Of a stretch of DNA of 35,375 nt, positions 5,998 through 35,374 are shown one piece after another (position 1 is the stretch's first letter; the number at the start of each line of letters is the position of its first letter). The stretch comes from Candidatus Heimdallarchaeota archaeon (GTDB lineage: Archaea > Asgardarchaeota > Heimdallarchaeia > Hodarchaeales > Hodarchaeaceae), in contig JBHLSH010000037.1 in the NCBI GenBank assembly GCA_048881705.1, forward strand, positions 1 to 35,375. Reading direction: 5' to 3'. The notes beneath the pieces were generated by a model, which was not told where the DNA came from, did not search any database, and saw only the letters and a program-made list of their open reading frames with translations. The position numbers and the translations under genes were made by a program.

Positions 5998-8900
5998 AAC
6001 CCATGAATGTACTAGAGTTTGAGCAATATAGTTTAGGTTTAAGGAATAACATTAATGCTCAATTGACGATTGCTTCAAAGGCTAGGGCGAGAAAATATGA
6101 TCCGATGGATTCAGTTGAATCCCGCTTAACCTTTTCTTCAAAAGAAAACATTCTAGCTATCCTTAATATCCCAGGTCTCGACAAACATCTTCCTCAGTAT
6201 CTGTTTAGTCACGAAAATGCGCTACAGCTTGCTGCAGAGGTTGCCAAACAAATTGTTAACGAGCGATTTGTCAAACTACCTCCAAACCAATTAATCCGCC
6301 TTGCTATCCATAGCGCACTTGTCATTCTGAGTAGAGGTTTGATCAGTATTCCCCAAGAAATTATTCCGAAGATCTTTATTTCAAACAGGACAAATCATCT
6401 CACCCTCTTTTTTAGTAATACTGTGCGATACGTTCGAGGAGATATAATAGGCCTGGTCATTCTCACTGCCGATTATATTAGGAAACTTCTGCATATCGAG
6501 AGATTTCGACCATCTCCAGCCTTGGTTAGCCGATATATTGAGGAAATGGAGTTATTTCTAACGCTGATAGATCGGTCGCAAGACTTGCGTAGGGATCTTG
6601 TAGAGACCCTAATCCAAAGTATTGGGGTTGAGATTACTGGAGAACCATCGGAACGGATCGAAGTTCGAAGATATAGAAATTTACCCAATATCCACAATCA
6701 ATTACGCATGGGAATGTGTGTCACATTAGAAAAAATTATGGATAATATCAACGTCATCGCTGAACAACGTACCACGGCCGAATTGCTGGAATGGGAATGG
6801 CTTAAACCTCATGTAACCGAAAAACGGGAAAAACTATCCTTTTCATCTAGGGATGCCAGGGGTACAAGGCCGTTACTTTCTAGATCGAAGACTCCTGGTG
6901 GATTCCGGCTTAGATATGGAATAGCCCGTAATACTGGACAGGGCGCCGTAGGGATTCATCCAGCAACTATGCATTTCTTAGAGCTACTTTCACCTGGAAC
7001 AAATGTTATTATTGATGTTATGGATCGACCAATCACCTTATTTCCAGTATCTTCATTACTTGGTCCGTATATAGAACTTAGGGATGGTTCCACAATTCGA
7101 ATAGAATCTGATACGGATTTTCGTGATTTGAAGGATAAGATCAAGCTAATCTGGGAGATGGGAGACCTACTTCTCTCACCCGACGATATTCCTGCAACTG
7201 AAACTATTGAGCAGGCAAGCTGGACCGAAGAATGGTGGAGTCAAGAAGTTTATGCCGTCATGAATACACAAGCCAGAGGATCGGAGTTTTTGGCAGCAAA
7301 ACTAGCCATTCCAGTAGAAATGTTGAAACGGTATCTTGAGTCTCCCATATTAAATCCACCTCCTAAAGAGGTTGCTGTAGGCCTATCCAGATTAACTAAT
7401 ACCCCTCTTCACCCTTACTACTCCTTCAACTGGAATGAAATCGCTATTGGAAACCTTGAAAAACTTCTTCTACTCATCAATAAGTCGAACAGCGATTTAA
7501 TTCCGTACGATACAGATATGATTAAAATTTTAAGTAAACTTGGAGTTCCCTTTACAATTGAAGACGATAAACTCCGTAGTCCACGGTTTGACCTGTTTGT
7601 CCAAGCCCTCAGTGGAAAAAAGCAAGAACTAACTCAGATTCTACTAAAATCGCCAGAGCCGCCAACTATTGAAGAAATACTTTCCCAGCTAATCGGCATT
7701 CAGATAAAATCTCTGTGCCACCGCAGAATTGGTTTAAAGCTTCTTCGAGTAGAGAAAGCAGAACTGAGACATCTTAACCCGCCAGCTCATGTTTTATTTC
7801 CAATTGGATCGTACGGGGGAACTCAGAAAGATATTTTAAAGGCGGCAAATGAATCAACGATAAACGTACGCCTCGCAGAGCGGTACTGCGCCTCGTGCGA
7901 GATATCTACTTTCCAAGTATTCTGTCCTCAATGCGATGAACAGACAGATCAACATTACGTATGCAGGCAAGGACATATCTCCGCTGAAAGAAACTGCACC
8001 ACTTGCGGGCAATATGCATTTCCTTCTCATTACAAACCTATCCATCTCGCAACGCAACTGGAATCGGCGTTTCAACTGACTGGAGAAGTTAAAGTAGATA
8101 AAATTAAGGGAGTGGCTTCTCTTAATAGTCGCAACCATATTCCTGAACATCTAGCGAAAGGGATATTAAGAGCTAAATACGATCTTCTTGTCTATAAAGA
8201 TGGTACTTCGAGATTTGAAATGACTAATGCCCCTTTGACCCATTTTACGCCAAAGGAAATTAATACGTCCATTTCAGATCTAAAACTACTCGGATATTCG
8301 CATGATGTGTATGGAGAAGATCTAACAGATGAAGACCAGATGGTTGAACTTTTCCCTTTTGATGTTATCATTAATCAGTCCGCGGGTGATTTTCTAATAA
8401 AGCAAACAAAGCTCGTCGATGATGAGCTGTCCTCTCTATATAGTCTCCCCCGCTACTATCGACGTAAAACCCTAGAAACCCTGGTCGGTACGATTATTGT
8501 GGGGCTTTCTCCATTTTCTGCAATAGCAGTGGTTGGGAGGGTAATTGGATACATCAAACACGTAAATGTGCTTCTGGCTCATCCACTCTGGCATAACTTA
8601 AAGACTCGCAATTGCAATGGAGATGTTGACTCCATTACTCTTCTTCTCGATGTACTCTTAAATTTCTCTACAGAATTCTACCCTACTCAACGGGGAGGAA
8701 GCATGGATATCCCCATGATCGTCCATTTTCCAGAAAGCTGGGAGGGGTTATCCCTAGCTAGCAAATATACCTCTGTTCCCTTGAATCTCCCTTATTATAG
8801 ATCATTGAACGAAAATCCACTCAGAGAGGACCTTATGACATACGAACAATCCTATCTGGCCCCTTCTGTACCCAAAATCCACACAATAGATAATTATTCG

Positions 8901-24783: not shown

Positions 24784-25178
24784 CTTCAATGGATGAACGC
24801 ATTCGCTACATCAATATTCGGATGATTGGTCTGTTCTCACTGACAGAGAAGGACGCGTGGCATGTTATCTCAACTGAAATCAGACGTCTAGTTGGGGCAG
24901 CAGGTGCAGCGGACATAGGCCTATTTCTGGCGTTTTTTGACCCAAAAAGCCAGGGCGGTATCTTCAGGGTTGCCCATCGATACATCCATCGTGTCAGAGG
25001 GGCCTTGTGTTTTATCCAGAAATGGAACCAAAATCCTATTTTCACTTATTCGGAAAATGTAAGCGGAACTCTCAAAACTGCTAAAAAGGAACTTTTGAGC
25101 GCTGGACACCTTCACCGTGCCAGTGTTCTTACCAAGATCTTTCATAACTATTGGAAATCAAGTTTCGATGATGATTAA
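24780..25178 (+). CDS. rnp2: Ribonuclease P protein component 2 (Pop5/Rpp14)
   Basis: RIRYI, RRLVG..G.A..G, GIFRV.H...RVRGAL, VSGTLKTAKK. GTG overlaps the rnp3 TGA. Confidence 0.85.
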   Translation: MTSMDERIRYINIRMIGLFSLTEKDAWHVISTEIRRLVGAAGAADIGLFLAFFDPKSQGGIFRVAHRYIHRVRGALCFIQKWNQNPIFTYSENVSGTLKTAKKELLSAGHLHRASVLTKIFHNYWKSSFDDD

Positions 25179-25222
25179 TATCTAACCGAAGTCCGTGTCG
25201 ACGCCGTCCCAGTCTGAGAAAC
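25162..25222 (+). ncRNA. Box C/D guide sRNA, predicted to guide 2'-O-methylation of the LSU rRNA P-loop G (E. coli G2251 equivalent)
   Basis: Stem GTTTC/GAAAC, 3-nt bulge, C box ATGATGA 25168-25174, D' CCGA 25186-25189, C' GTGTCGA 25195-25201, D CTGA 25214-25217. D guide GCCGTCCCAGT pairs with RCUGGGGCGGY. Confidence 0.88.
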
Positions 25223-28557: not shown

Positions 28558-28773
28558 CTAACCGAGGGTTAGTTTTCGAATCGCCAAACGAATATCGTCG
28601 CCCTCTACGGTCTTTTTTTTTGCATGCATCGCTATTTCTACCGCTAATTCGGAGATTCTGATCCCATATTCTTCTAGTTCCTGCTGCAAAATCTCAATCG
28701 CCGATTTGGAGACCCGATATGCTCCTCCCTTCCTGATAATTCGATCAACAGATGAATTGGGGATTTCTACCAA
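28558..28773 (-). CDS. Archaeal histone (HMf-type singlet, no tail)
   Basis: P....RII..GGAYRVS...HAKKKTVEGDDIRLA histone fold. TTG start with AGGTGA 8 nt upstream. Confidence 0.95.
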   Translation of the reverse strand: MVEIPNSSVDRIIRKGGAYRVSKSAIEILQQELEEYGIRISELAVEIAMHAKKKTVEGDDIRLAIRKLTLG

Positions 28774-28953: not shown

Positions 28954-29472
28954 ATGGGCAAGCGACCAGCCTCGTGTTATACTCGCGTTGACAGACCTCC
29001 CTACACAAGAAAAAAATATATTAAAGGGGGACCAGACCCCAAAATCCGCAGCTTCGACCTAGGAGAGCCAAGTAAAGATTTTCCTATTGAAATCTCCCTC
29101 CTCACCGATGAACGCTGTCAAATCAGTCACAATGCTCTCGAAGCCGCACGTATCCACGTCAACCGTTTCCTAACCCGAACGCTCGGTCGAGAGAACTATC
29201 ACTATCGAATTTGTGTTTATCCGCATCATCGTATTCGAGAAAACAAAATGATGACGGGAGCAGGCGCGGATCGAATACAAAACGGTATGCGTAAGGCATT
29301 TGGTAAAGTAATTAGCGTAGCAGCGAGAGTTTACGAGGGACAAAGACTTCTCTTTGTCAGAACAGATTTAGAGAATGTAGAGGTTGCGAAAGATGCATTG
29401 CGTCGTGGCAAGGCCAAGTTTCCAGTGCCTTGTCGAATCAAGGTCACAAAAGGGATGGAACTCCTTAATTAA
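28954..29472 (+). CDS. rpl10e: 50S ribosomal protein L10e/uL16
   Basis: RPASCY...PYTRKKYI.GGP, HNALEAARI, YPH..IRENKM.TGAGADR...GMR.AFGK. Confidence 0.97.
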   Translation: MGKRPASCYTRVDRPPYTRKKYIKGGPDPKIRSFDLGEPSKDFPIEISLLTDERCQISHNALEAARIHVNRFLTRTLGRENYHYRICVYPHHRIRENKMMTGAGADRIQNGMRKAFGKVISVAARVYEGQRLLFVRTDLENVEVAKDALRRGKAKFPVPCRIKVTKGMELLN

Positions 29473-29617
29473 GTAGCCTTTAGGATCAAATAAGTATCGT
29501 TTGAAGGGGAATGGAATGGGTCTCCAATTTCGGGATGTATTCACTCGTCCGTGGGGAAATACCTCCTTCATTTCAAGGCAAACTTAAGAAACCATTCTAG
29601 GTGAAAGGGCCAATCGA

Positions 29618-29679
29618 CAAGCTGTGACGAAACTGACCTAAACTGAAGCCCAGCTCGGATTAGGACACCTTTGAGCTTG
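29618..29679 (+). ncRNA. Box C/D dual-guide sRNA (predicted SSU and LSU rRNA targets)
   Basis: Stem CAAGC/GCTTG, 3-nt bulge, C GTGACGA 29624-29630, 12-nt guide, D' CTGA 29643-29646, degenerate C', 12-nt guide, D TTGA 29671-29674. Guides are complementary to UAGGUCAGU (archaeal 16S) and AGGUGUCCUAA (LSU H81). Confidence 0.85.
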
Positions 29680-29800
29680 GAGTTAATGATGTTCATGTAC
29701 CTCACCGAAAGCTTGTCATTACAGTTGAAGAAGTGCAGATCTATGTCTATGGGATCGCTTTAGGGTAGCCCTAGTATTATGACTGAATAAGGATCACAGA

Positions 29801-30157
29801 ATGGTAGAACCAAAACAAGTTATCATCCTCCGAAAAGACCTGAAGATGTCGAGAGGTAAGGCTGCGGCCCAGGCATCACATGCCAGCGTGGCCGCAGCGA
29901 TAAAAGTAATGCGAAAGGATCGAGACCAGTTCGAAGCCTGGTGGAGAGCGGGGCAAATGAAGGTGGTTCTCGGGGTCGACTCGGAGGCAGAGCTATTAAC
30001 GTTGGAGAAACAATTAAGATTAACGGGAGTTATTGTGGAGAAAATCAACGATGCTGGCAGAACCCAGCTTCCACCTGGAACCACCACGGCCTTAGGAGTG
30101 GGGCCCCATGTCAGAGAAGACGTGGAGAAGATCACATCAACCCTCAAACTATACTAG
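29801..30157 (+). CDS. pth2: Peptidyl-tRNA hydrolase 2
   Basis: KQVIILRKDLKMSRGKAAAQASHA, GQMKVVL, DAGRTQLPPGT.TALGVGP. Confidence 0.97.
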   Translation: MVEPKQVIILRKDLKMSRGKAAAQASHASVAAAIKVMRKDRDQFEAWWRAGQMKVVLGVDSEAELLTLEKQLRLTGVIVEKINDAGRTQLPPGTTTALGVGPHVREDVEKITSTLKLY

Positions 30158-30175: not shown

Positions 30176-31285
30176 ATGCGCATACTTAAGAAAGATCTAA
30201 AGAATCACCGTATTATTTTGAGGATTGAAACTTCTACGGATCTATATATCTTATCCAACCTTATCGCCCCTGGAGATCAGCTGGTTGCAAAAACAAGTAG
30301 ACGAATCCGGCGGTCAGGGAGTGATGGCCGATCTGGAGAAGATAGTCAGCGGATTACCATGACTCTCGGAATTGAGGTTGAGGACTTTGCGTTTCAGGAT
30401 AGTTCGGTGAGCAATCGTTTGAGGGTGAAGGGAAAAATCTATAGAGGGCCAGAGCAACATGTCTCTCTTGGGACATATCATACGCTTAACATAGAATTAA
30501 CAGAAACAGTAACTCTAATCAAGCCTCAAGGATGGACAAACTATTACTTGAGACTTCTTGAGGAGGCGGAGGAGGCTAGTCGTAAACCAAAAATCTGCTT
30601 GATTGCAGTAGACAAAACAGAAGCCTGCATTGGTCTGTTAGACAATTATAATTTGATCATCCTTGGACAGGAGAAATCCCACATTTCACGGAAGCTTGCA
30701 AAAGACAAAACGCGGGCAAAACAGACCCAAGGTTTTTTTGACATGATTATCGGAATTATCGACCGAAAGGTGTTACCCGTAACAAAGAACATTGTAATCG
30801 GCGGGCCAGGATTTATTAAAGAGCGGCTGGCTACTGTATTGAAAGAGAAATTTTCCAAAGAAGCCCTAAATATCGTGATCGCAGGTTCTCTTAGTGGGGG
30901 AAATAAGGTGGGCCTATCAGAATTATTACAAATGGAGGCCATTGATAAACTTGCACAAGATTTTCGATATTTAGAAGATCAACGTGTAATCGACGAGTTT
31001 CTCAAAAGGCTAAATCAAGGGAGTACTGACATTTCTTATGGATTTCAAGGTGTAAGAGAAGTAGCTGGCACAGGAGCCATCGAAACGGTCGTTCTTCTCG
31101 ATTCTTGGTTACAAGGAACAACAGAAATCCATCCCGAGCATATAAACAATCTGCTGCACGAGATCGAAAGGATAAGGGGCCGAATTTCAATTGTACCATC
31201 TAACAGTGAAACTGCTAGTAAATTGAAGACGTTCGGGGGAATTATTGCTCTTTTAAGGTGGTCAGTCCCCTCAGCTACCCCGTGA
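30176..31285 (+). CDS. pelA: Pelota/Dom34 ribosome rescue factor
   Basis: DLYILSN.I.PGD, RLRVKGKI, G.YHTLNI, GGPGFIKE, C-terminal GGIIALLRW. Confidence 0.95.
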   Translation: MRILKKDLKNHRIILRIETSTDLYILSNLIAPGDQLVAKTSRRIRRSGSDGRSGEDSQRITMTLGIEVEDFAFQDSSVSNRLRVKGKIYRGPEQHVSLGTYHTLNIELTETVTLIKPQGWTNYYLRLLEEAEEASRKPKICLIAVDKTEACIGLLDNYNLIILGQEKSHISRKLAKDKTRAKQTQGFFDMIIGIIDRKVLPVTKNIVIGGPGFIKERLATVLKEKFSKEALNIVIAGSLSGGNKVGLSELLQMEAIDKLAQDFRYLEDQRVIDEFLKRLNQGSTDISYGFQGVREVAGTGAIETVVLLDSWLQGTTEIHPEHINNLLHEIERIRGRISIVPSNSETASKLKTFGGIIALLRWSVPSATP

Positions 31286-35300: not shown

Positions 35301-35374
35301 TGGGTCCGGGGAGATTTGAACTCCCGAGCTCGCGCGCCCCAGGCGCGGATCCTACCAAACTAGACCACGAACCC
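35301..35374 (-). tRNA. tRNA-Pro(GGG), intronless, CCA not encoded
   Basis: Acceptor GGGTTCG/CGGACCC, D arm GTCT..GG..GGAT, anticodon stem CGCGC/GCGCG with loop CT-GGG-GC, T arm GGGAG-TTCAAAT-CTCCC, discriminator A. Confidence 0.96.

Follow-up and report, generated by a model that had tools for sequence, protein, structure and literature searches.

The question raised by this locus is whether the gap between rpl10e and pth2 in a Hodarchaeales (Asgard) genome encodes a guide RNA, where such an RNA begins and ends, and which rRNA nucleotides it would address. The window, meaning the whole stretch of DNA analyzed, spans 35,375 nt of contig C37 in a host assembly of 3.96 Mb and 41% G+C. A first-pass annotation had read a 62-nt dual-guide box C/D sRNA in this gap at 29618-29679. 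Pfam profiles bear out the gap itself, identifying the flanking genes as L10e/uL16 and PTH2, and the pelota gene that follows pth2 carries eRF1 domains 1-3. The gap holds a box C/D RNA at 29616-29717 (+). Elsewhere in the window, the minus strand carries an archaeal histone-fold gene at 28558-28773, a short way upstream of rpl10e, and a tRNA-Pro (GGG) gene at the end (35301-35374).

DNA searches recovered a non-coding block matching window positions 29624-29708 at 72-80% identity in 20 of the 21 other genomes of the genus. This block extends well past 29679, with conservation in the relatives running from 29624 to 29708. The RNA measures about 100 nt, and the shorter extent does not stand. Alignment of the 21 copies shows that the boxes, both guides and a GGACACC element in the spacer are invariant or nearly so, and that the flanks and the remaining spacer vary. 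Every copy (21 of 21) parses as a C box, 12-13 nt, CUGA, a 35-39-nt hairpin, AUGAUGU, 12 nt and CUGA. The guide between C and D' is 12 nt long (13 nt in three genomes) and the guide between C' and D is 12 nt. The box-to-box length is 85 nt, or about 102 nt with the terminal stem. The call of a dual-guide box C/D sRNA is thus supported by boxes conserved in 21 copies and by two 12-nt guides, and the features are collected in Table 1.

Table 1. Features of the rpl10e-pth2 gap and its neighbors (window coordinates).
Feature	Positions	Strand	Remarks
rpl10e (uL16/L10e)	28954-29472	+	Upstream gene; Pfam PF00252, E = 3e-31
Possible TATA-like element CTTAAGAA	29583-29590	+	About 26-33 nt before the 5' stem of the RNA; seen in the sequence
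Terminal stem, 5' arm GACAAGCU	29616-29623	+	Pairs 8/8 with 29710-29717
Box C, GUGACGA	29624-29630	+	RUGAUGA in 19 relatives outside the window's own lineage; tandem GA kept
D' guide (guide 1) AACUGACCUAAA	29631-29642	+	Core invariant in 21 genomes
Box D', CUGA	29643-29646	+	Invariant in 21 sequences
Internal stem-loop between D' and C'	29647-29685	+	Stem about 29647-29656 with 29673-29684
Loop element UAGGACACCUU	29661-29671	+	Conserved core GGACACC at 29663-29669; complements 16S 1014-1024
Box C', AUGAUGU	29686-29692	+	U2 to U7 invariant in 21 sequences
D guide (guide 2) UCAUGUACCUCA	29693-29704	+	CAUGUACCUC invariant in 21 sequences
Box D, CCGA	29705-29708	+	CUGA in 19 relatives outside the window's own lineage
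Terminal stem, 3' arm AGCUUGUC	29710-29717	+	Pairs with 29616-29623
pth2	29801-30157	+	Downstream gene; Pfam PF01981, E = 3e-38
pelota	30176-31285	+	After pth2; eRF1 domains 1-3

Single-sequence folding places a hairpin of 9-11 bp in the spacer of every copy, starting right after D' and separated at its end from the GA of C' by one nucleotide and a 3-nt bulge. The internal boxes, CUGA for D' and AUGAUGU for C', have the 3-nt bulge and the GA dinucleotides placed for a k-turn on the inner stem, and the position of the hairpin relative to the two boxes indicates that C'/D' is a true k-turn on a helix and not a k-loop. The inner helix is supported by covariation: seven of its ten pairs show compensatory changes on both sides, 89.9% of the alignment cells are paired compared to no more than 46% when the partners are slid, and the covariation score was reached by none of 500 shuffles. 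RNAalifold predicts the same helix independently.

The terminal boxes follow the consensus in 19 of the 21 copies. This genome has GUGACGA and CCGA, and the tandem G-A pairs are retained. In the established k-turn model for box C/D RNAs, U5 of box C and U2 of box D face each other as a U-U pair beside the tandem G-A pairs. The change of box C U5 to C and of box D U2 to C occurs jointly, and only in this genome (G000) and its nearest relative (G001). The U-U has therefore become C-C, which links box C to the D box at 29705-29708, and the change is one evolutionary event. The 102-nt RNA is 100% identical between these two genomes within a surrounding 1204-nt region that is 87% identical, which argues for continued constraint on the RNA. 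The terminal stem is 8 bp in this genome, formed by GACAAGCU with AGCUUGUC, in place of the 5-bp stem that had been proposed; the terminal stems of the relatives are shorter and variable. Among the relatives compared directly after the D box (G018, G020, G002, G014 and G004), one clade has a small GGAG-N5-CUCC hairpin there in place of the 5'/3' terminal stem, and other relatives have in common a TTAATCTC-like motif at that place. The TATA-like CTTAAGAA is present about 28 nt upstream, as the first-pass annotation claimed; relatives have no alignable motif there, although A/T-rich runs occur at roughly equal distance upstream of the RNA, and a role for CTTAAGAA as a promoter element of the RNA is weakly suggested.

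All three core proteins of a box C/D sRNP are encoded by the host, as judged by Pfam profile matches. The genes for fibrillarin and Nop5 are adjacent on contig C27 (PF01269, 252 bits; PF01798, 222 bits), and the L7Ae gene is on contig C58 (PF01248, 87 bits). Rfam contains no family that matches the locus at threshold. The best match is the plant model snoR114 (RF01421), which resembles this RNA in its terminal stem with C box and in its CUGA spacing, but the sub-threshold score of 15.6 bits (E = 4.2) is below the gathering score of 45 and the RNA is not a member.

Both guides were compared with the host 16S rRNA on contig C20, and their targets were compared in four species of the genus with an assembled 16S. 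Guide 1 nucleotides 29632-29640 form nine Watson-Crick base pairs with host 16S 1139-1147 (UAGGUCAGU), and C29638 at D'+5 faces G1141. The first-pass annotation had proposed this pairing and selected the first G of UAGGUCAGU, and the host's own 16S confirms it; this G is E. coli 1197 in helix 34. In most relatives the guide starts with U or AU, which lengthens the duplex to 10-11 bp. Guide 2 nucleotides 29693-29703 form 11 base pairs with host 16S 983-993, and C29700 at D+5 faces G986. This duplex has nine Watson-Crick and two G-U pairs in this genome, and ten Watson-Crick and one G-U pair in most relatives. No perfect guide 2 target was found elsewhere in the host assembly. Both guides reach the minimum of 9 bp with a stable RNA that is given for guide-target pairing together with long-range double guides (PMC4644070), with a Watson-Crick C-G pair at +5.

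The target sites were placed on E. coli 16S by alignment, which equates G986 with 1051, the loop target described below with 1081-1087 and G1141 with 1197; the rrs copy aligned lacks 22 nt between positions 338 and 515, and the numbering was corrected by landmarks. In the standard 16S secondary structure, positions 1051 and 1197 lie on the two strands of helix 34, and 1081-1087 falls in the helix 36/37 region. None of the three 16S sites differs among the four species. The order of guide 1, loop and guide 2 along the sRNA is the antiparallel mirror of the order of their targets along 16S. Shuffle tests of the single matches gave p values of ~0.036 for guide 1, ~0.06 for guide 2 and ~0.04 for the loop, each only marginally significant. 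The weight of the rRNA matches comes from their arrangement, because they are clustered within 165 nt of one rRNA, ordered and invariant across the genus.

A relaxed genome-wide scan returned 94 candidates, and this locus was the only one with both guides matching rRNA. The candidates are mostly spurious and so do not provide a clean census of the sRNA architectures of the host. No match to a strict pattern for canonical C-D'-C'-D RNAs turned up anywhere in the host genome. Two other box C/D candidates were seen. One, at 25162-25222 (+) in the window, overlaps the end of an upstream ORF and has a GTTTC/GAAAC stem, a C box ATGATGA and degenerate inner boxes CCGA and TGTCGA; its D guide forms an 11-bp run (nine Watson-Crick) with the same-genus 23S. 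The other, on contig C73 of the same assembly (8138-8199, -), has a short stem, GTTGTC paired with GACAAC, in its D'-C' region. The C73 candidate and the present RNA together raise the possibility that C'/D' motifs closed by a stem are frequent in this genome.

The conserved loop core GGACACC complements 16S 1016-1022, between the two guide targets. Its complement, GGUGUCC, occurs once in 16S and is absent from the 23S sequences examined (the host fragment and that of relative G005). Of the 21 copies, 20 carry the core intact and G019 has one mismatch. Every loop could form 7 bp with 16S (6 bp in one genome), a predicted duplex that differing flanking nucleotides extend to 8-13 bp in 10 of the 21. 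The loop probably adds a third 16S contact, as predicted from this complementarity, although it could be conserved for another reason because half of the genomes have no more than the 7 bp. Two intramolecular roles for the hairpin were considered and set aside. Pairing between guide 1 and the loop (CCUAA/UUAGG), seen in the fold of a short fragment, exists only in this genome. A third k-turn around the loop (AUGAU ... NUGA) is possible in this genome through UCG-GA and UUGA and is not conserved: the 5' element reads AUGAU, AUAAU, AUGCU or UAAAC in relatives, and the bulge would be 4 nt.

The best explanation is that 29616-29717 (+) encodes a ~100-nt box C/D guide sRNA that would direct methylation of G986 and G1141 and use its loop as a third contact with 16S. 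On the strength of the conservation and the complementarities, we regard this function as likely. Points that count against it include the box deviations in this genome (GUGACGA and CCGA), the length of guide 1 at only 9 bp, the one or two G-U pairs that guide 2 needs, the marginal significance of each single match and the lack of an Rfam match above threshold. In the predicted mechanism, boxes C and D would form the terminal k-turn, and boxes D' and C' would form a second k-turn closed by the 10-bp internal stem-loop rather than by the usual archaeal k-loop. Both k-turns would be assembly sites for L7Ae, Nop5 and fibrillarin. Paired with 16S 1139-1147, the D' guide would direct 2'-O-methylation of G1141 (E. 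coli 1197), and the D guide, paired with 16S 983-993, would direct methylation of G986 (E. coli 1051), so that the targets would be the two helix 34 strands beside the decoding site. The loop GGACACC may serve, by accessory pairing at 16S 1016-1022, to dock the RNP onto the 3' major domain of the nascent rRNA.

An alternative that accepts the same RNA and the same pairings is that this is a real box C/D sRNP that acts mainly as an assembly chaperone for the 16S region from helix 34 to helix 37 and methylates one site or none. The guides hold opposite strands of one helix and the third element binds between them, as a chaperone might, and the box variants of this genome might weaken catalysis. 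Dennis et al. propose such a role for sR17 and sR15 of N. equitans (PMC4644070). A Watson-Crick pair at +5 and an exact 12-nt spacing, however, are needed for methylation and not for binding alone, and they are credited to both guides in 21 of 21 genomes. We therefore consider a role confined largely to chaperoning unlikely.

The shorter RNA of the first-pass annotation fares considerably worse. It would be a 62-nt sRNA with a D box UUGA and a D guide, UUAGGACACCU, that methylates a helix 81 G of a human-type 23S. The motifs on which it was built are where they were said to be (CAAGC at 29618-22, GCTTG at 29675-79, GTGACGA at 29624-30, CTGA at 29643-46 and TTGA at 29671-74). This genome taken alone fits the short model, since CAAGC and GCUUG can pair, and UCG-GA with UUGA allows a k-turn-like fold; the complement of the 11-mer also equals the eukaryotic LSU string. 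Formally, the 5-bp stem can be drawn for this species alone, which has AGCUUG twice, and relatives have no complement to the 5' arm at the place of the 3' stem. The proposed D box reads AUGA, UUGA, GUGA, AUAA or AAGA in relatives and lies inside the covarying stem, and most relatives differ from this genome by 1 nt in the spacing between GGACACC and UGA, which would shift the +5 nucleotide. The TTGA, the D guide and the GCTTG stem arm are all parts of the internal covarying hairpin. Of the boxes expected to be conserved, C and D' are kept, together with a C' and a D that had not been listed, but the TTGA is not. When the short fragment is folded alone, its two supposed guides pair with each other, an early hint that a hairpin, not a guide, might make up the 3' half.

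The 23S target of the short model was not recovered either. The host 23S ends at a contig end at model position 2078 with its 3' third unassembled, and the 23S of G005, which is 85% identical in the overlap, supplies positions 1019-2987. The 11/11 match claimed for the LSU is not found: AGGUGUCCUAA is absent from both the host fragment (16-2078) and the same-genus 23S (1019-2987), as is even GGUGUCC, with the qualification that a target in the 3' third of the host 23S is excluded only via this 85%-identical relative. The proposed human-type helix 81 is not supported: the homologous place in the same-genus 23S reads AUGGUCACCUCAAAGGCG / AUGGUCACCUCAA. Apart from the locus, the host assembly contains AGGUGUCCUAA in one other place, inside ORFs on contig C1. 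We judge the 62-nt model to be very improbable. Two other sources of the missing 23S part were not used. A complete archaeal LSU in G001 (C57:307-3242) is 64-71% identical to the host 23S and represents another lineage or contamination, and isolated matches to LSU 2721-2973 in G001 and G008 did not supply the missing part. These ~300-nt copies lie inside contigs, two per genome, detached from the 23S (G001 C52 and C45; G008 C8), and a further one is at G000 C155:1656-1805. The 23S also breaks at a contig end at the identical model position 2078 in G000 (C9:70390-72465) and G001 (C38), which suggests an insertion, intron or repeat that breaks assemblies. The link of the short model to eukaryotic methylation sites survives in a different form, because the real second guide falls on the other strand of helix 34.

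A further reading, barely credible, has no trans-acting guide and makes the locus a cis-acting regulatory structure bound by L7Ae, in the 3' UTR of rpl10e or the 5' UTR of pth2. Same-strand placement between two translation-related genes, 92 nt before the pth2 start, and the known binding of L7Ae to mRNA k-turns in archaea (PMC5539422) would fit it, but such an element has no need for two invariant 12-nt spacers that complement 16S helix 34 with the correct +5 geometry.

The distribution of the methylation guide sRNA was determined with a covariance model built from the 21 copies, which finds one copy each in 21 of the 22 genomes of the genus and none in the 61 other genomes of the class. A pattern consisting of the C box, guide 1 and D' identifies the same 21 genomes and none of the 378 other Asgard genomes sampled; guides that address the two 16S sites in a different register, or that adjoin a degenerate box, would escape these searches. 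Run with its filters off, the model gives no hit in the region after rpl10e, either in loci titled Thorarchaeota, Hermodarchaeota, Promethearchaeota or Bathyarchaeia, or in loci of other genera and families of the host's class. Literature searches found no box C/D guide RNAs described for Asgard archaea. Recent phylogenies place Hodarchaeales among the archaea most closely related to eukaryotes. The first-pass annotation had suggested that the modifications may predate eukaryotes, but an RNA found in only one genus does not establish this, nor an ancestry to the eukaryotic guides.

Archaeal C/D sRNAs are typically ~50-70 nt with a short k-loop at C'/D' (PMC7994747). This RNA departs from that compact symmetric form (PMC7994747, PMC3116282) through its 35-39-nt D'-C' spacer and covarying 10-bp helix, and searches tuned to compact archaeal sRNAs will shorten such genes, as happened with the 62-nt reading. 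The closest archaeal parallels are sR17 (helix 28) and sR15 (helix 30) of N. equitans, which likewise pair their guides with the two strands of one 16S helix, at sites separated by more than 100 nt within the 3' major domain, and have the same boxes, 12-nt guides and +5 rule (PMC4644070). The chaperone role proposed for sR17 and sR15 is due to the same authors (Dennis et al. 2015, PMC4644070). The present RNA differs from the N. equitans guides in its length of ~100 nt, its 10-bp inner stem, its conserved 13-16-nt loop and its helix 34 target.

The eukaryotic parallels concern both the targets and the architecture. The predicted targets lie in the same helix 34 as those of yeast snR56/human SNORD25 and yeast snR40/human SNORD32A, and they appear to be the same nucleotides. 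Counted along yeast 18S, G986 appears to correspond to yeast Gm1271/human Gm1328 and G1141 to yeast Gm1428/human Gm1490, the latter being the equivalence named in the first-pass annotation, which holds on this basis. In this count G1271 lies just 5' of UGCAUGG and G1428 is the first G of ACAGGUCUG (A-G-G-U-C), and the count is self-consistent in that U falls at 1191 and 1269, as known. Gm1271 (snR40; human Gm1328) and Gm1428 (snR56; human Gm1490) are the two helix 34 ribose methylations of the decoding center (PMC2794176). Gm1271- and Gm1428-type sites are conserved in plants, human and yeast, and no Pyrococcus abyssi equivalent is entered in a compilation that lists archaeal sites only if they are shared with plants (PMC11542601). 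Eukaryotes use two separate snoRNAs for the two sites, whereas here one RNA would serve both.

In yeast, additional complementarity to rRNA is frequent among snoRNAs and is found mainly between D' and C' (PMC3116282). Both snR40 and snR56 have such complementarity in most yeasts (PMC3116282) and are the closest analogue of the loop element. The snR70-type eukaryotic snoRNAs resemble this RNA in having a conserved rRNA-complementary element between D' and C' near the target (van Nues et al. 2011, PMC3116282), and the C'/D' region is longer than in archaea both in eukaryotic snoRNAs (PMC3116282) and here. The extra pairing in yeast is immediately beside the methylation site, whereas the predicted contact here would be 23 nt downstream of one target and ~115 nt upstream of the other. 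An ancestral Asgard/eukaryote state can be imagined in which one guide RNP, equipped with an internal stem like that of snoRNAs and with accessory rRNA pairing, made both helix 34 Gm residues and helped fold the decoding-site head domain before splitting into the snR40/U32 and snR56/U25 lineages, a scenario that we consider improbable. The archaeal traits of this RNA are two active-looking guides and exact 12-nt spacing, and its eukaryote-like traits are the long stem-closed D'-C' region, the candidate accessory pairing and two decoding-center targets that are methylated across eukaryotes. The RNA offers a testable case of either helix 34 methylations and a snoRNA-like architecture before eukaryotes or convergence on both.
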